Shown here piece by piece: positions 2,100 to 38,676 of a stretch of DNA of 64,000 bases. A program made the translations under genes and the position numbers. The notes under the pieces were generated by a model. The model saw nothing but the letters and a program-made list of their open reading frames with translations. It ran no database searches and had not been told where the DNA came from. Origin of the DNA: Schmidtea polychroa (taxonomy: Eukaryota); assembly GCA_044892525.1 (NCBI GenBank), contig CM097887.1:61566001-61630000 (forward strand). Direction: 5' to 3'. Numbering within the stretch: the first letter of the stretch is position 1; every line of letters begins with the position of its first letter.

Positions 2100-2805
2100 A
2101 GGCAATCTAAGTTAAGTTAAATTTATAGTTTATATTTTAAAGCTAATATAATTTTATAATTTATATTTTTATGAAGTTAAATTTATAGTTTATATTTTAG
2201 AACTGATATAATTTTATAATTTATACTTTTAAGTTTATAATTTATATTTGGTGAAGTTCAATTTATAGTTTATATTCCTAAAGCTAATATAATTTTATAA
2301 TTTGTATTTTTAAGTTTATAATTTATATTTTTATGAAGTTAATTTTATGGTTTATATTTTAAAGCTAATATGATTTTATAATTTATACTTTTAAGTTTAT
2401 AATTTATATTTGGTGAAGTTCAATTTATAGTTTATATTTCTAAAGCTAATATAATTTTATAATTTATTTTTTTATGAAGTTAAATTTATAGTTTATATTT
2501 CTAAAGCTAATATAATTTTATAATTTATTTTTTTATGAAGTTAAATTTATAGTTTATATTTCTAAAGCTAATATAATTTTATAATTTATATTTTTATGAA
2601 GTTAAATTTATAGTTTATATTTCTAAAGCTAATAAAATTTTATAATTTATACTTTTATAATTAACTTAGAGTTATAATTTATAATTTATAGTCAATGTAA
2701 ATTTGTAATTTATATTTTTAGGAAATTAAATTTATAATTTATACTTTTATAACTAATTATAATTTATATTTTTATGAAATTAGGATTATAATTTATACTT
2801 TTGTA
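2100..2805. repeat. ~60-bp AT-rich minisatellite array
   Basis: Repeated unit TTATAATTTATATTTTTATGAAGTTAAATTTATAGTTTATATTT(C)TAAAGCTAATATAAT. Related units resume at 17856-18060, after the Polinton. Confidence 0.85.
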
Positions 2806-3740
2806 AGTAGTGTGGTTATATACCCAAGCAAAACAGCCCCCCAACAAAAACATGCCTCCAAATCACTTAAGCTATTAGAAAAACAACCTAAAACTTATAC
2901 TTTTATAGTATTTTAACCCTATATTTTGAAAACAACCACCCTTAATGACTCTAACTGTTTTAATCTTTAAAGCCTCAAACTCAAAAGCTTCAAACTAAAA
3001 AGAGAATAGAAAAGAAAATGGCATTATGAAAAAGTTAGAGGGCTATTTGATCTTTATCAGATTATTGATTTTAAATTATATAAATTAAAAAATAAATGAA
3101 AAAAACTGCTCTGAGGGGACAGTGGTATTTTTTTTTTTTTTTTTCACTGTCCCCTCAACAGTTTTTTTTGATCCGGATCATTTTTTTTATTTATCAACCT
3201 CTTTCGTTTATCGAATCTCTTCCAATATACAAGCTGGCCAGACTCATACATCAGAATCAATCCGATAATAGCAGCACACCTTATTATTCGCTTCTCGTTC
3301 GAATACGATTTCATCGGCGTTTTAAGTGTGCTGCTCGAAAGTACAAATGAATTCGAAAGCGAATTCGAAAGAGGTCCGAAAACAACTGAGAAATAAATGT
3401 GCACATTAAAGAATCGATCCGGGGGTGTTCGAAAGACAGGTGGCGATAATTACCGGTTCGCCACCATCACCCGTTTCAATATTTTTTTTTTCATATTTAT
3501 GTTTAAAAAATAATTAATTAATAAAAAAATAAAATAAAATAAAATAAATAAAATAAAATATACAAGTACTTTATAAATATAAGATACCCACACTATTTTC
3601 AATATTATTTTCAAATTTTTAATATTATTTTATGTTGAAAAAAAACTAACCACAGTTAGGATTTGAACCGCTATCTATTTGAACCACTGTGCCGGTCTAG
3701 CCCACTGCGCTATCTAGGTTTGGATTTTTTGTTATTTTTT
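2806..3740 (+). repeat. Polinton left TIR (~935 bp)
   Basis: Reverse complement of ~16945-17849. The inner ~750 bp is nearly identical; the outer ~150 bp is diverged with indels. Confidence 0.95.
3638..3722 (-). ncRNA. tRNA-like Pol III cassette 1 (in left TIR)
   Basis: Minus strand: A box TAGCGCAGTGG (3702-3712), B box GGTTCAAATCC (3659-3669), T8 terminator (3638-3645). No full cloverleaf. Confidence 0.65.
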
Positions 3741-3961
3741 TAAATAATCGATTCAAGTTCTTTTATTCTTTCCTGTAATTGTTTTATTTTCTTCAATCTT
3801 ATATCAGGAACATCTACAGCCTTCATATAAAAATGTCGATACTTTTCATTATCTACCATCAACTCTTTGATGTATTCTAATGGTTCTTCTTCTCTTCTTT
3901 TCATTCTCTTATGTTTAACTTCATTCAATTCATTTCTCATTCTTTCTTTTAACTCATCCAT
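3740..3961 (-). CDS. Polinton small charged helical protein (73 aa)
   Basis: ATG ORF in an AAAAATG context, just inside the TIR and between the Pol III cassettes. No recognisable family. Confidence 0.5.
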   Translation of the reverse strand: MDELKERMRNELNEVKHKRMKRREEEPLEYIKELMVDNEKYRHFYMKAVDVPDIRLKKIKQLQERIKELESII

Positions 3962-4123
3962 TTTTATAAATATTTTTTTATTGGATATATTAATTTTTGG
4001 TAGCTTAAGTTAAAACGTTTTTGATCTTAAATTTCCAAGAGTTGCCGTTGACCAATCACCTTAAAAATTTGTACAAGTACTAAATCGAATATGCTGATCA
4101 ATATTTCGTTAAAAAATAATTTG

Positions 4124-4205
4124 AAAAAAAATGACCGAAATGGGATTTGAACCCATTGGTATTGGCAATGCAGTCGAGTGCTATTACCACTAAGCTATAC
4201 TCAAA
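4124..4205 (-). ncRNA. tRNA(Cys)-like Pol III cassette 2
   Basis: Minus strand reads GAGTATAGCTTAGTGGTAATAGCACTCGACTGCA..AATGGGTTCAAATCCCATT TCGGTCA T9. It has A and B boxes, a perfect 6-bp T-arm and a 5' half resembling tRNA-Cys(GCA). Acceptor and anticodon stems do not pair. Confidence 0.7.
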
Positions 4206-4356
4206 ATAAAATAAGTTGTTAATGTGTGACTATTTATTGATGAAATTGATAATTAATTATTCATTTTCTCGACAACTACCACTCAGATCCATCTGAAAAT
4301 TTAAATATATACTAAAATCAGTACGCTGAATCAGATTCCGTTGAAAAAAAATATCG

Positions 4357-4440
4357 AAAAAAATTGACCAAAATCGAAAATTGAACCCGGTACTCCCGGT
4401 GATAAAATTGAAGCCTATTCCCACTCCGCTATAATGGCTT
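4357..4440 (-). ncRNA. tRNA-like Pol III cassette 3
   Basis: Minus strand: A box TAGCGGAGTGG (4421-4431), TTATCACCGGGAGTACCGGGTTCAATT (resembles the tRNA-Asp 3' half; degenerate B box), then GGTCAA and a T run. It is a diverged tandem duplicate of cassette 2 and its flank. Confidence 0.55.
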
Positions 4441-4494
4441 ACATAATATATTTAATTAATCCTATTTTGTGTGTGTAAATTTTAATATATAAAA

Positions 4495-5781
4495 ATGAAT
4501 AATATAAAAATTCAAGAAAAAAATAAATTAAATCTTGATTATAATAAAGAATTTACTCATGAAATCAAGAAAAACGATGTACTTAAAATCTCCCCAACTT
4601 CAGGATCTATTGCAAACTTAAATCGTAGGGGTGATATAGTTTTTCAATCTCTTCAAACATCAAACCTTATAGATATTTGTAATGCCAAATTATATTATAA
4701 AATCGAATTAGAAATTGAAGCAAACAAAGATATAACCCTAGAAAATAATTTCTTTCCAAATTTATTCTCCAACATGAGATTAAAACTAGGATCATCAGAA
4801 ATTGAAACTGTTTTGCATCCGGGAGTATATTCTACAATGTTAAATTTTATTTTGATTGGTTGTGATTATAAAAACGAATATGGTGAATTAACAGGTTGGA
4901 TTCCTGATGTTAATAAAGGGGATTTAGATAAAGATGGTTTAGATGTAAACCATGGTTACCATAAAAGAGCTGAACTTTATAAATCTAAAAAATTTGAAGG
5001 TTATTTTGAATTAAAACACTTGTTTGGATTCCTTCAAAACTATAATCGTATACTTCATAATGTTTTTATAGAATTCATCTGTAATAGAGTAGAAGGTGAT
5101 AAAAGATTGTTCTATGGAGCTGTAGATACAAAAGCTAAATTAAAATTATCAACACTTGAATTACATATACCTGAATGGACATTAAACCCACATTCTGAGA
5201 TTAAACTCCTTGAAAGATTAAATTCCAACAAGTCTATAAATGTAAATTATTTAAATAGAATCTGTAGTGAATTTAGTATGACAGAGGGTTCAACATATTC
5301 TATAAAGGTAGCAAATTTAGCATACCGACCAAGATATATCTTGATTGGATTCAAAGAAGTAGATTCATCTTTCCAAAAAAATAACAACTTGTTTATTCAA
5401 AAGATTGGAGTTGATAATTTAAAAACAATCCAAATTCAATTAAATAGTTCTTATTATCCAATAAATAGAATGGAATTTAATATTGCAAATAATGAAAACA
5501 TATTCCCATATCTAAATTATATTGAAACATGTTATGATTTCAAAGTTGAACCGCAATTAAGTTTAGAAGATTTCAAAAATTTATATTCTATATTTTGTAT
5601 AAATGTTTCAGACCAAGATGATCGCCTAGCCATAAATAATGTTGATGTTACACTTCATGTAACAAAGGATTCTAATTTTAAAGCTAAAGTATATACATTA
5701 ATATTAGAAGAAAAGAAAATAGAAATGAAATTATATGGTGGAAAGATTTCAATAATCGAAAATGTTAGGGGAGATTCTTGA
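4495..5781 (+). CDS. Polinton major capsid protein (double jelly-roll)
   Basis: 428 aa with Polinton MCP-type motifs LENNFFPNLFS, GWIPD, LKHLFGF, PRYILIGFK, IQLNSSYYP; located inside the element. Confidence 0.85.
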   Translation: MNNIKIQEKNKLNLDYNKEFTHEIKKNDVLKISPTSGSIANLNRRGDIVFQSLQTSNLIDICNAKLYYKIELEIEANKDITLENNFFPNLFSNMRLKLGSSEIETVLHPGVYSTMLNFILIGCDYKNEYGELTGWIPDVNKGDLDKDGLDVNHGYHKRAELYKSKKFEGYFELKHLFGFLQNYNRILHNVFIEFICNRVEGDKRLFYGAVDTKAKLKLSTLELHIPEWTLNPHSEIKLLERLNSNKSINVNYLNRICSEFSMTEGSTYSIKVANLAYRPRYILIGFKEVDSSFQKNNNLFIQKIGVDNLKTIQIQLNSSYYPINRMEFNIANNENIFPYLNYIETCYDFKVEPQLSLEDFKNLYSIFCINVSDQDDRLAINNVDVTLHVTKDSNFKAKVYTLILEEKKIEMKLYGGKISIIENVRGDS

Positions 5782-5810
5782 TATAATCCCTGATATTTTA
5801 ACATTTTAAA

Positions 5811-7220
5811 ATGTCTCTAAATAAATATTGGAGATGTGAAAGTTGTAATTGTCAAGTTACAAGACATCATAAAGCAAGTCATTTAAAAACTAAAAAACAT
5901 ACAGGAGGTGATCTAATTCCACGAGCTAGAGGCGATTTGCAATCTTCAAAAACAACATCTTCAATATTAAAACCTTTTACTACAGAAAAATATCCAGGTG
6001 AAAGACATTTATTTAAACACAACTATACCGGACCAGGAACAAGATTAGATATTAGATTAGATGAAAATAATAATCCTAAACAAGGAGAAGAACCAATAAA
6101 TAGAATCGACCAAGCAGCTTTAAAACATGACATTGCATACAATTCAACAAATCTTAGAGATAGACATGTTGCAGATGTGAATTTAATACATGATTTAAAT
6201 AGTATCCAAAATCCATCAACCCAAGAAAAGATTCAAAGAGCTCTAGTTAAATTAGCAATGAAAGGTAAGATTTTCATAGGCTTAGGACACAGTCCGATCA
6301 CCATGGGTGCAAGACTTCCTAGGAAAGCAAAAGATGTTGCTTATAAAAAGATTATCGAACAAGCAGAGATTGAAAGATCCCTCGAGAGTACAGCCAAGAC
6401 TAGTTTACAAACCCCAACAGAATCAGAAATAAAATATGCAAAGGAATTACACCATGAATTTAGAAAAAATAAAAAATATTTAAAAGTTCAAGTACATGAA
6501 AAAGATCAAACATGGTCTGCAGATTTAGTCTTTATGCCCAAATCATCAGACCCTGAAAAATATAAAATAATTTTAACTGTAATAGATTTATATACAAGAT
6601 TTGCTTTTGCAAGATGTTTAGAAAATAAAACAGGATATTCTATTACAGAAGCATTTGAAAATATATTTGAAGAAAATCAAAGAATCCCAAAATATTTATG
6701 GTGTGATAAAGGAACAGAATTTTATAACAAAGTTTTTACAAAGTTTTTAAATGAAAATGATATTAAATTATATTCAACAGAAAACGAAGGAAAAGCAGTC
6801 GTAGTTGAAAGATTAAATAGAACATTAAAAAATAAAATGTGGAAATATTTTACTGCTATTGGAAAACAAAAATGGAACAATGAATTGTTACAAAAGATTG
6901 TAAATGAATATAATAATGATGTACATAGTTCTATAAAATTAACACCTTTAAATGCTTCCATGAAGCCTGAAACCATTAAAGTGGTAAATATTGAAAATGA
7001 TGTTATTGAAAAACCAAAGTTTAAAATTGGTGACCGAGTAAGAATATTTAAATATAAAAATAAATTTGAAAAAGGATTCACAGCAAAATGGACAAATGAA
7101 ATTTTTATTATAAATAAAATACATTATACAACTCCAATAACATATACCATCTTTGATTTAAATAATGAAAAAATATTAGGTAGATTTTATAATAATGAAC
7201 TACAGAAAACAGATTTTTAA
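5811..7220 (+). CDS. Zn-finger / parvovirus-type PLA2 / retroviral-like integrase fusion
   Basis: CxxC..H..H N-terminus; NYTGPG, DQAALKHDIAY, RHVAD (PLA2); WSADL, VIDLYTR, WCDKGTEF, VVERLNRTLK (DDE integrase); KFKIGDRVRI C-terminal domain. Confidence 0.9.
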   Translation: MSLNKYWRCESCNCQVTRHHKASHLKTKKHTGGDLIPRARGDLQSSKTTSSILKPFTTEKYPGERHLFKHNYTGPGTRLDIRLDENNNPKQGEEPINRIDQAALKHDIAYNSTNLRDRHVADVNLIHDLNSIQNPSTQEKIQRALVKLAMKGKIFIGLGHSPITMGARLPRKAKDVAYKKIIEQAEIERSLESTAKTSLQTPTESEIKYAKELHHEFRKNKKYLKVQVHEKDQTWSADLVFMPKSSDPEKYKIILTVIDLYTRFAFARCLENKTGYSITEAFENIFEENQRIPKYLWCDKGTEFYNKVFTKFLNENDIKLYSTENEGKAVVVERLNRTLKNKMWKYFTAIGKQKWNNELLQKIVNEYNNDVHSSIKLTPLNASMKPETIKVVNIENDVIEKPKFKIGDRVRIFKYKNKFEKGFTAKWTNEIFIINKIHYTTPITYTIFDLNNEKILGRFYNNELQKTDF

Positions 7221-7231
7221 GTCGACAAGCC

Positions 7232-8077
7232 CTAAAACAAACTTTTCCATATTTCAGCTTCTTCTCTATCCAAATAAATATAATTATATTTTTCTTTCCA
7301 ATGATTATCAACAAACATATCAAACATATTCTTATCAGGTTCAACATTTGAAAATAAATCATTATAAATCATATTCTTATCACGGCGATCTAATTTAAAA
7401 AATATAAAACAATTGGAATTATTTCTTATTGAATTTTTATCTAAAGCATAATATGTTTGAGATATATAAATAACATTACAATTATTATGTCGACCTCGTG
7501 TAAAGTAACTCTTTTGAATCTCTTGATTTTTCATGTTGACAACATCATCAAATATAACTAGATTCTTTTTATCTTTAGGAAGTAAATCACAATGTAAAAC
7601 ATCTTCAGGTTTATTAGAGAATAAAACTTGAATTGCCTCCTGCCCTTCTTCACAAATATAATCATTTTTATTACTAATATCTGATTCTAAAATCTTTTCC
7701 TTATACCAATCAACCATATCACAAGGTTGAAAAACTTCTTCAGGACACCTATGTTGATTTTTAAAAATATCAATTATTGCTTTTTTAGTTAATTTATTTT
7801 CAAATCCACATTTCAAAAGTTGTAATTCTGGTTGATTTATGGTTGTAGAATAAAAGATTAAATTATTATAATCTAAAAAATCATCTTCAAGTAACATTCT
7901 CAAAACAAGTACATTCATTCCACATCCAGAAGAACCAACAATTAATAATCTAAAATTATCAGGAAATACTTTATTATTAAATTTACTTTTATGTCTATTT
8001 AAAATTGGTTTCCAAATTATTGGACTTCGTACATCCATTTTGTTTATTATAAAATGACAACTGAAGAATCTTTGCAA
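7232..8077 (-). CDS. A32-like DNA packaging ATPase
   Basis: LIVGSSGCG(M/N) Walker A with the Lys missing, LVIFDD Walker B, RGRHNN motif. Confidence 0.9.
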   Translation of the reverse strand: MQRFFSCHFIINKMDVRSPIIWKPILNRHKSKFNNKVFPDNFRLLIVGSSGCGMNVLVLRMLLEDDFLDYNNLIFYSTTINQPELQLLKCGFENKLTKKAIIDIFKNQHRCPEEVFQPCDMVDWYKEKILESDISNKNDYICEEGQEAIQVLFSNKPEDVLHCDLLPKDKKNLVIFDDVVNMKNQEIQKSYFTRGRHNNCNVIYISQTYYALDKNSIRNNSNCFIFFKLDRRDKNMIYNDLFSNVEPDKNMFDMFVDNHWKEKYNYIYLDREEAEIWKSLF

Positions 8078-8632
8078 GAATTAATAAATTCAAATAAAAA
8101 TAAATCAGTAGTAATTGATGGTAAAAAATATTTTATTGGAAAACATGTAAAAGAACAAGTTAGAGCGAAGCTCCACGAATCTAAAGAAGGTGGCATTCTT
8201 CCATTAGCTGCTTTAATACCTGCAATCATTGCTGGTTTATCAGGTGCTGCTGGAATAGCTGGAGGAATTGCAACTACAGTTCAAAAAGCTAAAGAATCTC
8301 AAAAGACAGACCTAGAAAAAGAAAAACTACAAACTGAAATCGATTCAATGAAGAAGGTAGGGCAAGCTAAAGGGGGAGTGTCCGTTGGAAAGGGTCTCTA
8401 TCTTAATCCATATGAGGGGAGTCGGCAAAAGTCTCAGGGCAAAGGTCTCTATCTTGATCCTTATAAAGGTAGAGGTTTAAATGATTTTTTAAAAAATCAA
8501 ATTTCTACATCTGAATCTTTATCTTCAAAAGATAAAGAAGATTTAAAAAAAATATGTAAATCTTTAAAGAATGGATGCCTTTGTAAAACTAAAAATGGTA
8601 AAGGATTATACTTGAAGCCCTTCGAACTATGA
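8054..8632 (+). CDS. Putative virion core/precursor protein
   Basis: GGILPLAALIPAIIAGL hydrophobic segment and repeated G(K/R)GLYL.P motifs typical of small Polinton structural precursors. Confidence 0.6.
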   Translation: MTTEESLQELINSNKNKSVVIDGKKYFIGKHVKEQVRAKLHESKEGGILPLAALIPAIIAGLSGAAGIAGGIATTVQKAKESQKTDLEKEKLQTEIDSMKKVGQAKGGVSVGKGLYLNPYEGSRQKSQGKGLYLDPYKGRGLNDFLKNQISTSESLSSKDKEDLKKICKSLKNGCLCKTKNGKGLYLKPFEL

Positions 8633-8654
8633 TACCATTTTTGATACCATTAAA

Positions 8655-35300: not shown

Positions 35301-35900
35301 AACCGATGGATTAGTAGAGAGGTTTAACGGGACATTATTAAGTAGATTAGCGGTTTTTGTGGGAAAAAATCAAAATGACTGGGATGAATATGTTAGTCAA
35401 TGCTCGTACATTCATAATATCACACCTAATGAAACTACAGGGTACTCACCATATTTCTTAATGTTTTTAAGAGAACCAGCAACACCAATCGATACAATTT
35501 TTGAACCACGAGTATCACAATATTTAGATGCGCCAGATTACGTAACACTGATGCAAGAACGAATGCAAGAAGTGTATAAAGTAGCTAATCTAAAAGTAAA
35601 ATTCAGACAAGAGCAATATAAAGCTGATTACGATAGGACATGTAAACCGCATACTTTTAAAGTGGGAGATAAGGTTAGACTTATGTCACCACAAGTAGGA
35701 AAAGGAAAAACAACAAAATTAGCAAGACCATTTAAAGGTCCATACGAGGTAGTAAAAGTAGTGCACGAAAATTTACATTTACAAAGACACAAAAATGAGG
35801 ACCCTATCATAGTACATGTTAACAGATGTAAACTTGCAGAAACAGAAATAACAGTAGAACCACCCCATAAATACAGTTTACGATCACAGAAAGGGTTGAT
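32400..35900 (+). pseudogene. Pol: aspartic protease, RT, RNase H, integrase
   Basis: ALVDTGA; SQWASPIVPVKKKDG..CIDYRKLN; YMND (YxDD mutated); MADASGKAVGAVL..IRTDHKPL; HHCC zinc finger, D-D-E, GPY. In-frame TAA at 32511-32513; frameshifts at ~33955 and ~35118. Confidence 0.95.
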
Positions 35901-36849
35901 GATGTCAACAATTTTTCTAACAATTATTGGACTTGTTAATTCAATCGATATTAAATATTTAACAGAATTTATAGGAGATAAAGAGATCCTAATAAACATT
36001 TCGCCATACGAAATCAATGTATTTAACTTAAATAGAATGCCAATAAGGGATTTATACCTAGAAACAACCAATGATACACCAATCAGACTAATGGAGAAAA
36101 GGGAAGAAAGATCCACTAATGAATTCGAAAAAGGGGATATCGTTAAATTTATAAACTTAAAACCCAACACAGAATACACCCTATGTGCACAATGGAACCT
36201 AGAGATGCATACATCACAAATAAAATGTAAAAAAATAACAACACTACAACAAAAAAAGCAGAAAATAACCAAACGAATTAACATAAGTACAATGCTCAAA
36301 ACAACTATGTCAACTACTACCTTAAGCACAACAACTACTCAAAAAACCGTTCAAACAATAACAAGTACAGATGTAACAACTGAGTACAAAACAAGAAAAC
36401 AAGCATATATAAAATTTGTAAGAGCAACACCATGGCAAATAAAGGAAAAAATAAAGTTACCACCGGGAAAACCCGTCGTGATAAGTAATTGGGATGAATT
36501 ACAAGCTTTTCAAACAAAAACACTCAAACCATGTTGGTCCTTTTATGTAATGTCAGCAAGCATCCTAGCAGTAGCAATTCTAGCAATAGCACTAGTATAC
36601 AAATCTACAAAAAATACAAGTGGAAACGGCAGCGGTATCGGCACCGACTGGTCAATAGTATACCAGGGCAGTTTCACTTGGACAGAGATATACCAGGGCA
36701 ATATACAATGTCCACTTGAGTGTAATAATTTCATAAAATGGTCAATAATATTAAATAAAATCACATATATAAATATTTATAAAAAAAGTGCGTATAAGGT
36801 TAAACCCACAATGCGCAATCAATATGTATATTTACATTTCCTTTTTTGA
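35899..36849 (+). CDS. Signal peptide / FN3-like / Thr-rich stalk / TM module fused in frame to the integrase C-terminus
   Basis: Within ORF 35104-36849: MMSTIFLTIIGLVNS, LKPNTEYTLC, TTMSTTTLSTTTT, FYVMSASILAVAILAIALVY. Confidence 0.65.
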   Translation: MMSTIFLTIIGLVNSIDIKYLTEFIGDKEILINISPYEINVFNLNRMPIRDLYLETTNDTPIRLMEKREERSTNEFEKGDIVKFINLKPNTEYTLCAQWNLEMHTSQIKCKKITTLQQKKQKITKRINISTMLKTTMSTTTLSTTTTQKTVQTITSTDVTTEYKTRKQAYIKFVRATPWQIKEKIKLPPGKPVVISNWDELQAFQTKTLKPCWSFYVMSASILAVAILAIALVYKSTKNTSGNGSGIGTDWSIVYQGSFTWTEIYQGNIQCPLECNNFIKWSIILNKITYINIYKKSAYKVKPTMRNQYVYLHFLF

Positions 36850-36879
36850 ACAGAAATCAATAGAATAGCAATATCGACA

Positions 36880-38676
36880 ATGCAATCCAATTTCCCAAAC
36901 AATCAGTTCAATAATCAACAATCAATGAAAAAATATTCATTTACAATCCATAAACATTATCATAGTTTTTATAAGAATCTCCAAAACAAAATCAGTACAG
37001 ATGGCTCACCCATAACAATTAGAAGCTTCCCAAACCAAGTCTGCATACCCAACGACATGAAAATTGAAATAGAAAAAAGAGAGATGCATTTGATCAAATT
37101 CAACGAAGCTCGAAGAGTCAAGCTAAGAGAGCTGATCGGGACATATGATCGTTACCCTAATGTCGAAAATGCAGTAAGAGAGGGAAAAAAGGTACCACAT
37201 CGTATCTTATTCCATATGACCAAAACAGAGGTCTCAATATCTCAGCAGAAGATTCCAATAATCACAAAAAGCAACTGTACAACGGTCATGAAGACCATCA
37301 ACAACAACCGAAGCATGCCAAATGAATTCAATGAGCTGACAGTGCAAATGAACAACCTACCCTGTGTAATAGCCATCGAGGTGCTATATATCCCAACAAT
37401 TCCAAACCCATTCAGAGAGCTCCAATTAATTAAATCCAACATCATAATATATCAAGATTTCATAACAAAGAAAGTGTCATTCACACATCAAGATCTCCCC
37501 ATACCCGAGAGACAACAGAAAATTGTATTCGTAGATGTCAAAGAGATATGCGACATCAACAACAACCTCAGATCGGTGGAGGTATGTATCCGAAATTTCC
37601 GAGGAGAGATTATATACAGAAAACAAATAACACCCCGAACAAAAGTGTGGCACTATTATCCCGAAAAAACAAAAGCAGATCGAGATTCAATCATAGGGAA
37701 CGAGGACGAATATCGAGCTTTGGTAGATATACAAGATCTACTCCTCGAAAAATTTATAGTGGGTTACGACATCATGAGCAAGCTGAGAACTCTGACATTA
37801 GATTTATACAATATCATGGGAGTGAGGGAGATGGCAGCAGATAGATTTAAGTGCTCATTCGTAAAGAACATCGCACCACACAAAATACGATTATCAAACC
37901 TCGCATTCCAAGTGATAGCAACCCATCAAAAATGGCGAAAGGACAAGAAAATCAATGAGATCCTGAAAAGACCAGAACCATTTTCAACAGAATATACCAC
38001 CCTCATTTTTAAGGTGACTTACCAAATTGTGGAAAAACAATTGGAAGAAGTCATACATTGGGAGATTACACAATTTCAAAAAGACGAAAATAACCAGGGC
38101 TATCAACTCAGTGAGAGGAGAGAAACCAGTGATGAGCTAGAATCAGACGATGAAGATATATATATCGAGCCATCGCAAGTAGAATTAAAATTTCGAAAAG
38201 ATGGAAGGCGGAGAACATGTGAAGACGAGTTATTGGACGACGATAGCGACGACGATCTTATTTTTGTGAAACAAGAAAATAGTACAATTCAGCTTACAAC
38301 TATCAAAAGAGAACCAGGGACTAGCAATAAATTTGGAGAGATACAATGCGACCTGGATTCAGACAAAGAATATTTCTCAATAGAAGAAGAGACGGAGGAC
38401 GATTATAAAATGCAAATAGAAGAAGTAGAGGAGGAATTGGGACCAGAGCCAAATATCGCGTTAGAAGAGCCGAACTTTATAATTGAAAAAGACAAAGGTA
38501 TGATCTCAGAGAAAGACATATGTCGTCATTTCGGAAGACGAATTAACGAAGGAGACATACTGAATTTGGCCTTGGAAAAAGGATTTCGGAGAACAGTGAT
38601 GAAAGCAAGGGACTGTGAGATCGAATTAGTAATCTGCGATAAAGGTAATGAGGACATTACCTTGACGGCCCTGTGA
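36880..38676 (+). CDS. Accessory ORF with a degenerate REX4/ISG20-like DEDDh fold and acidic tail (598 aa)
   Basis: KIVFVDVKEI..VEVCIRNFRGEIIYRKQITP..LLEKFIVGYDIMSKL..GVREMA aligns by eye to REX4/ISG20 Exo motifs, with catalytic acidic residues replaced. Confidence 0.6.
   Translation: MQSNFPNNQFNNQQSMKKYSFTIHKHYHSFYKNLQNKISTDGSPITIRSFPNQVCIPNDMKIEIEKREMHLIKFNEARRVKLRELIGTYDRYPNVENAVREGKKVPHRILFHMTKTEVSISQQKIPIITKSNCTTVMKTINNNRSMPNEFNELTVQMNNLPCVIAIEVLYIPTIPNPFRELQLIKSNIIIYQDFITKKVSFTHQDLPIPERQQKIVFVDVKEICDINNNLRSVEVCIRNFRGEIIYRKQITPRTKVWHYYPEKTKADRDSIIGNEDEYRALVDIQDLLLEKFIVGYDIMSKLRTLTLDLYNIMGVREMAADRFKCSFVKNIAPHKIRLSNLAFQVIATHQKWRKDKKINEILKRPEPFSTEYTTLIFKVTYQIVEKQLEEVIHWEITQFQKDENNQGYQLSERRETSDELESDDEDIYIEPSQVELKFRKDGRRRTCEDELLDDDSDDDLIFVKQENSTIQLTTIKREPGTSNKFGEIQCDLDSDKEYFSIEEETEDDYKMQIEEVEEELGPEPNIALEEPNFIIEKDKGMISEKDICRHFGRRINEGDILNLALEKGFRRTVMKARDCEIELVICDKGNEDITLTAL

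Follow-up and report, generated by a model that had tools for sequence, protein, structure and literature searches.

Pol III-type units at the ends of an animal Polinton: a candidate folded RNA gene and short A/B-box units, two of them probably taken from the host rDNA spacer

The ends of a Polinton in an AT-rich animal genome carry two kinds of unit with the sequence anatomy of type 2 Pol III genes. The long unit, which we call u4, is likely a Pol III gene whose transcript is a folded RNA, and the short units are likely DNA sites for TFIIIC or Pol III, two of which appear to have been captured from the host's rDNA spacer. We give this combined reading about an even chance of being right. The original prediction, made from a 64,000-nt stretch of DNA (hereafter the window), was that the element carries a cluster of tRNA-derived Pol III mini-genes that might be analogues of adenovirus VA RNAs or of the TMERs of murine gammaherpesvirus 68. 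The system is real, and its interest rests on u4, not on the three short cassettes that had been flagged.

The element (2806..17849, about 15 kb) is of the Polinton/adintovirus type. It has the AG termini, the 6-bp target-site duplication (TSD) and the long terminal inverted repeats (TIRs) of a Polinton/Maverick; the TIRs, at 2806..3742 and 16943..17849, are about 0.9 kb long. It also has the expected rve integrase, packaging ATPase and double jelly-roll capsid. On the plus strand are the capsid gene (4495..5781; PF21738), which is divergent from cassette 3, and a gene with a PLA2-like domain and the rve integrase (5811..7220). On the minus strand are an A32-like packaging ATPase (7232..8038) and a protein-primed PolB region (12602..16905), which is split into three ORFs in the window copy. 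The three PolB pieces had no direct match in Pfam, PHROG or PDB. They align at 57-59% with an ORF of a sister element that matches PF03175, so we consider that the element has a protein-primed PolB. For ORF 9571-10023, where an adenain-like cysteine protease was sought, we found a weak match to Peptidase_C39 alone (E = 0.05), and there is what we take to be a motif likeness to such a protease. A 73-aa ORF between cassettes 1 and 2 (3740..3961, minus strand) matches no family. A 20-mer from the capsid gene has 2,141 matches in the 781-Mb genome, which corresponds to about 2,100 capsid-bearing copies. The window also contains a 192-aa ORF (8054-8632) whose match, of the adenovirus protein X type, is weak (E = 0.016), a large Gypsy-type element with several ORFs, a Bcl-2-like domain and a match to Monjiviricetes fusion glycoprotein (27589-38676), and, outside the Polinton, a run of Ns (23806-24022). 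Judging from the likeness of this Gypsy element, the host may be a planarian.

The long unit u4 (3099..3472, minus strand) had been overlooked. It lies outside the flagged coordinates, about 170 nt beyond the T-run of cassette 1. This predicted Pol III RNA gene has a tRNA-Asp-derived head, a multi-stem folded body, a 3' hairpin with an A-rich loop, and a T-run. A second copy lies in the right TIR (17213..17594, plus strand) and ends in T4 and then T5. The A box (3463-3453), which is one position off the usual consensus, and the B box (3420-3411) are 43 nt apart, and the intervening sequence resembles that of the host tRNA-Asp (z = 5.4). We counted 2,844 genomic matches to the head and none to its control. 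We rejected the idea that u4 is a tRNA-derived SINE: at the first 30 matches it was inside a Polinton end every time (30/30 loci), with no dispersed solo copies that have their own TSD and A-tail. (The original prediction had itself raised the possibility that the units belong to a host SINE family scattered across the genome; at the sampled sites they do not.)

The u4 stretch of about 375 nt folds with a z-score of -9.0, and in a fold scan (150-nt windows every 300 nt) only its two TIR copies stand out. In the predicted structure, long-range stems close the fold, which also contains three inner hairpins, and the A-rich loop belongs to a hairpin at the tail. The best-conserved part is a 61-nt hairpin of 25 pairs, of which 8 are G-U (3208..3268, minus strand); it is the size of a pre-miRNA. 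To look for constraint, we gathered copies by homology from all of the genome loci that we fetched, removed duplicates, and compared changes found in a single copy (mostly post-insertion) with changes shared by at least four copies (inherited via replication). Across 157 copies of u4 and 96 high-probability pairs, 46 of 63 singletons broke a pair, as compared to 5 of 16 shared changes (p = 0.003; the copies are related and mosaic, so the p-values of these tests overstate their independence). Most of the pair-keeping changes are one-sided shifts to or from G-U, and RNAalifold gave no covariation support on 16 representatives (term +0.21; two-sided change in 1 of 66 pairs). In three copies (L126, L277, and L281), an inner stem is replaced by a different stem in the same place.

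Could the signal at u4 instead be the 3' end of Pol II read-through, or could the stems be DNA structures of protein-primed replication, with the boxes left over from a tRNA-Asp? We consider this unlikely. An AATAAA near 3190 permits reading by Pol II and, along with the A-runs in u4, would permit polyadenylation or oligo-dT priming. The terminator is ambiguous, as most copies end in T4 and then T3-5 and contain another T4 about 95 nt into the unit (host terminators that we saw ranged from T4 to T9). For the tail hairpin, the two strands fold equally well (z = -7.3 and -8.2), and box sparing in the head, taken alone, is not significant (p = 0.22). However, the core fold is stronger on the sense strand (z = -4.9 versus -2.3), and the G-U pairs of the core are invariant. 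Furthermore, in a diverged group of elements with 86-88% capsid identity, the head has been rewritten around the boxes, which stay in tRNA register, and the 61-nt hairpin is almost unchanged. Selection for a protein does not account for u4 either, as its 56-aa ORF is open with an ATG in just 39 of 147 copies. Rfam placed u4 in no known RNA family, and a search of the element and of the rRNA genes for a long complement of the hairpin gave 12 nt at best. The arm motifs of the hairpin were not found in a relevant paper.

Contig coverage gives a weak hint that u4 exists as RNA. We examined 6 of the 12 listed runs; which runs are RNA-like is our guess, as none is recorded as RNA, and contigs carry no strand, start, end, or level. 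Contigs from the RNA-like runs X1 and X2 (study P1) and X7 and X8 (study P3) cover u4, with X7 covering 3161-3357 and X8 having a single contig across 3128-3418. The RNA-like cover drops near 3100-3160, close to the predicted end of u4, and the DNA-like run X3 continues. The summed depth of X1 and X2 is 2,600-22,000 at 3166-3409, 12-21 just beyond 3105, and 0-930 in internal bins, and the depth of X3 stays within about fourfold except at a skipped repeat (3471-3531); contig depth cannot be used to rank genes. The drop in cover upstream of u4 is confounded by skipped repeats. Loose T-tails in X2 at 3181 would suit oligo-dT priming on a minus-strand RNA, which is a weak indication. What hints at an RNA is that, in both studies, contigs cover u4 and stop close to where it is predicted to end. 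At cassette 1, a contig of X2 (3572-3689) extends past the T-run, so no discrete short RNA is indicated there, and this also favors read-through. X1 and X2 have no cover on cassette 2 (4142-4263) and little on cassette 3, which we read as indicating that these runs are other than plain DNA, and not that the cassettes are silent. X10 yielded no cover. Judging from its sequence, u4 would be a better VA/TMER candidate than the flagged cassettes are. The claim that the Polinton carries such an RNA gene stands insofar as there is a credible candidate, which is folded and keeps its pairs, but it is not any of the three flagged cassettes.

The short cassettes themselves are where they had been placed. 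Cassette 1 (3638..3720) lies in the left TIR, with a copy in the right TIR (16965..17047, plus strand), and cassettes 2 (4124..4205) and 3 (4357..4439) follow it; all three are on the minus strand. The T of the A box is at 3712, 4197, and 4431 on the minus strand and at 16973 on the plus strand. The layout of A box, B box, and T-run also held up: the B-box G is 43-44 nt and the T-run is 66-68 nt downstream of the A-box T. This is the register of host tRNA genes (we compared the host tRNA-Lys), and, as in host tRNA genes, a run of T7-T9 comes directly after position 73. The units thus have A and B boxes in register and then oligo-T, as a type 2 Pol III gene does. Cassette 1, which ends in T8, has a second B box that the original prediction missed; it arose by a 16-nt duplication and is absent from some copies. 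Searching the genome with the pattern of box, box, and T-run gave 4,002 matches in forward orientation, as against 0 with the reversed control pattern. (In reverse orientation there are 10,581, a number inflated by T-runs that overlap.)

As predicted, the tRNA fold has been lost. ARAGORN found no tRNA in the entire window, and none of the units has a functional tRNA cloverleaf. The expected low scores were also seen, with the Rfam tRNA model matching cassette 2 alone, at 26.7 bits (the cut-off is 29). Cassette 2 is derived from tRNA-Cys (48/73 identical to the host tRNA-Cys between boxes, z = 3.2). The tRNA-Asp likeness that had been claimed for cassette 3, whose B box is degenerate, was not supported (z = 0.2 against the host tRNA-Asp); none of the four host tRNAs that we compared is clearly its parent.

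Cassette 1 belongs to the TIR and is the element's own unit, and its boxes are constrained. Over 170 copies, we counted 13 singletons and just 1 shared change (A/G at the degenerate R of the A box) at the 21 positions of the boxes, and 13 singletons and 26 shared changes at the 45 other positions (Fisher p = 1.3e-4, with the same caveat of related and mosaic copies). For cassettes 2 and 3, we compared 99 and 93 copies and found 1 and 0 shared changes outside the boxes. Within the Polinton these two thus have almost no shared variation in which constraint could show, and the predicted pattern of conserved boxes and diverged spacers is confirmed for cassette 1 only. In the diverged elements (86-88% capsid identity), the boxes and T-runs of the short units are kept at varying spacer lengths.

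The original prediction was that the flagged cassettes make decoy RNAs, and their anatomy is that of complete genes, with T7-T9 right after position 73. Cassette 1 has constrained boxes and a constrained T-run, and RNAs of 75 nt are lost by standard libraries, so the present data are compatible with functional Pol III small-RNA genes, whose products would be decoys for La, Dicer, PIWI, or tRNA-processing enzymes. Nevertheless, we think this quite unlikely. The short units have no stable fold (z = +0.8, -2.7, and -0.05), and the alleles of cassette 1 have no meaningful common fold (consensus -4.4 kcal/mol). The sequence between the boxes is highly variable, as is its length, units of different origin are interchangeable, and two of the three cassettes are nearly identical to a row of units in the host's rDNA spacer. 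Kept boxes, a free interior, and interchangeable origins suggest that the short units are selected for binding protein or for being transcribed as such, and not for an RNA product. The constraint on cassette 1 in the absence of a fold suits a DNA site better than an RNA product. The original prediction had offered TFIIIC sites as an alternative to decoys, and the short units fit it as far as sequence goes, with boxes kept and no conserved fold.

A block on the minus strand that contains cassettes 2 and 3 (3997..4483) is shared, at 96-98% identity, with the intergenic spacer of the host's rDNA. We located the rDNA arrays with a 5.8S search, and Rfam placed the first matches to the box pattern between 28S and 18S. 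In 11 of 12 fully covered spacers, on 7 contigs, we found cassette 3 and, after it, cassette 2 in 2-3 copies; the spacing is about 243 bp, and the units run antisense to the rRNA. The single fully covered spacer that lacks the row is on contig C97. Of 4 partly covered spacers, 2 have the row, 1 has a 79-80% version beside a Polinton insertion, and 1 has nothing in the part that is covered. In copy L002, the Polinton block is identical to the spacer at 283/289 and 284/295 aligned positions. Another tRNA-like unit lies upstream in the spacer, and overall the spacer row is made up of 4-5 degenerate tRNA-like A/B-box units of three sequence types, about 240 bp apart (L312:2300-3400; L324, G000:C115:22487-23454). 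Contig joints that skip the 3997-4483 block occur in both DNA-like and RNA-like runs.

From these alignments, the block is likely a recent capture from the host rDNA spacer. In a diverged group of Polintons, a version of cassette 2 with 89% identity is located elsewhere in the TIR, and two separate captures would be the simplest reading, with the direction of transfer judged from sequence. An ancient Polinton origin for the spacer row, with transfer in the reverse direction, is also conceivable. The original prediction had viewed cassettes 2 and 3 as an old tandem duplication: we confirmed the homology of their flanks, yet the same pair is also present in the rDNA spacer. These loci show that sequence is exchanged between Polintons and rDNA and that an animal rDNA spacer can hold a row of tRNA-like units.

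Several other arrangements of such sequences came to light. In one region (L314, G000:C1:33510-40000), a Polinton ends within an rDNA spacer, which is a possible route of sequence exchange, and about 8 kb separates the parts of a nearby 28S gene. A 1,245-bp satellite (L043-L052, G000:C1:145883-162151) contains an 86% version of the spacer unit that holds cassette 2, with its boxes largely kept. Host tRNA genes are in very large tandem arrays (L065-L090, L121-L124, and L344), with 1,001 matches to the Cys pattern and 1,727 to the Asp pattern; the array units are 398 bp for Asp-Gly and about 793 bp for Lys.

Most but not all capsid-bearing copies have units. We fetched 99 of the first 100 capsid matches (30 of them with 1.5 kb upstream), a sample that is biased toward capsids like that of the window. 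At least one unit is present in 94 of the 99, with 93 recognized by homology and 1 having diverged units, and the other 5 lack them. Left ends have 0, 1, 2, or 3 short units in 7, 24, 24, and 44 of the 99 elements, with cassette 3 present in 58 and cassette 2 in 55. Among the 22 distinct sites of short units at the start of contig C1 (L031-L060), 9 are in Polintons, 3 are in rDNA spacer, and 10 are in satellite. Units are absent from one sister Polinton that is full length and whose 328-bp TIRs are 99% identical, so they are dispensable for at least that family: they are accessory and not essential to Polinton transposition. On a capsid tree of 43 rows, which were hand-picked to include diverged and unit-less elements, the presence of units requires 7 changes and no single origin was found; this scatter fits recombination or repeated loss. 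Viral contigs had no relatives of the capsid and no match to the u4 hairpin. The 37 metagenomic capsid loci (94 kb, mostly short contigs without ends, and hence uninformative about TIRs) had no tRNA and no A+B unit.

We also noticed that, upstream of the capsid gene, unit-less sisters (L245, L256, L272, L160, L164, L167, L168, and L170) terminate in fold-back structures of 200-330 bp that have AGTAGT/ACTACT at either end. One of them, L245, shares 96% DNA identity with the window element in the capsid and 57-59% protein identity in the polymerase, which suggests that Polinton families swap modules.

Perhaps all of the short units are neutral cargo, picked up by insertion into rDNA or tRNA arrays and hitch-hiking with a successful lineage. 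The unit-less sisters and the scattered presence on the capsid tree would suit this, as would the Polinton end inside an rDNA spacer and the presence, at different TIR positions, of two separate blocks that resemble the spacer (97% and 89% identical). Cassettes 2 and 3 are better candidates for this reading than cassette 1 is. But the boxes of cassette 1 are selectively spared and units have been gained repeatedly by duplication, including the duplication of the B box, so we rate this the least probable of the readings.

We thus favor a folded Pol III RNA from u4 and TFIIIC or Pol III sites in the short units. We observed the anatomy, the copy numbers, the near-identity to the spacer, the sparing of boxes in cassette 1, and the pair-keeping changes in u4, and we infer every step beyond the anatomy and the constraint tests. 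Pol III would transcribe u4 outward from both ends into a structured RNA of about 375 nt. The short units, gained by duplication and capture, would load TFIIIC beside u4 and the capsid promoter, and this loading may, in the face of Polinton silencing by the host, hold open both the end of the element and the capsid promoter next to it. The u4 RNA, with its A-rich tracts and its pre-miRNA-sized hairpin, might act as a VA/TMER-like decoy or as a precursor of small RNA, and so might help this lineage of Polintons to amplify. In S. mediterranea, Polintons are repressed by SMEDWI-2 and piRNAs, and planarian Polintons are targets of piRNAs and H3K9me3 (PMC8532177); if our host is similar, this would supply the selective pressure. 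A bolder account, which we offer tentatively as a possibility that is probably wrong in some part, is that a VA/TMER-like Pol III gene arose independently in the Polinton from a tRNA-Asp of the host, that this gene is present in both TIRs and abundantly expressed, that its hairpin yields a small RNA or jams silencing, and that B-box units taken repeatedly from the rDNA spacer aided the expansion to thousands of copies.

Non-coding Pol III RNAs are known tools of counter-defence in adenoviruses, herpesviruses, and some retroviruses, and Polintons share their types of capsid and polymerase with adenoviruses. With about 2,800 copies of u4 and unit-less sisters in the same genome, there is a natural comparison for studying the birth of a gene from a tRNA and the escape from silencing by an endogenous DNA virus. 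Among the matches listed in our literature searches, whose scope did not extend to subscription papers or Repbase, we found no report of degenerate Pol III units or of a structured Pol III RNA in Polinton TIRs, and none of tRNA-like units in planarian rDNA spacers.

The TMERs are clustered near a genome end, as are the Polinton units. The TMERs of murine gammaherpesvirus 68 resemble u4 in having a type 2 internal promoter and a tRNA-derived 5' part that is followed by hairpins (PMC8223928, PMC5785229). The Asp-like head of u4 corresponds to that 5' part, but no cloverleaf is predicted for it, so release by tRNase Z is doubtful. Also, u4 is longer than the TMERs, has A-rich tracts, and is carried by an integrating Polinton, and any processing of it is hypothetical. 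Adenovirus VA RNA is likewise a structured RNA whose gene has A and B boxes, and the virus that makes it has a jelly-roll capsid and a protein-primed PolB (PMC8223928, PMC5785229). There was no match to the Rfam models of VA RNA in 2700-4600 at E ≤ 10. VA RNAs are about 160 nt long; u4 is about twice as long, is located in TIRs, and has a recognizable tRNA-Asp head.

TMERs, VA RNAs, and the cassettes of BLV and foamy viruses are all viral Pol III RNAs, and the Pol III miRNA cassettes of BLV and foamy viruses are, like the Polinton units, small Pol III hairpin units in an integrated viral genome (PMC8223928, PMC4267658, and PMC5785229). The Polinton units differ in belonging to a DNA element and in having an intragenic B box, and the u4 hairpin is only a candidate miRNA. 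Genes for tRNAs occur in Polinton-like viruses and virophages (PMC12220804) and in MELD viruses (PMC8502044), where tRNA-type sequence is thought to be host-derived, as it would be here. Those tRNAs were called by ARAGORN or Rfam, whereas our units fail both and keep only the promoter boxes; the term "VA RNA" has 0 occurrences in the accessible text of the MELD virus paper (PMC8502044). The units differ from SINEs in that we saw no copies outside of Polintons, rDNA spacer, or spacer-derived satellite, and in that the short units end in T-runs and not in poly(A). In their general plan, tRNA-derived SINEs have a tRNA head, a body, and an A-rich part, and TFIIIC-bound tDNA/ETC elements use B boxes as chromatin barriers; u4 resembles the former and the short units resemble the latter.
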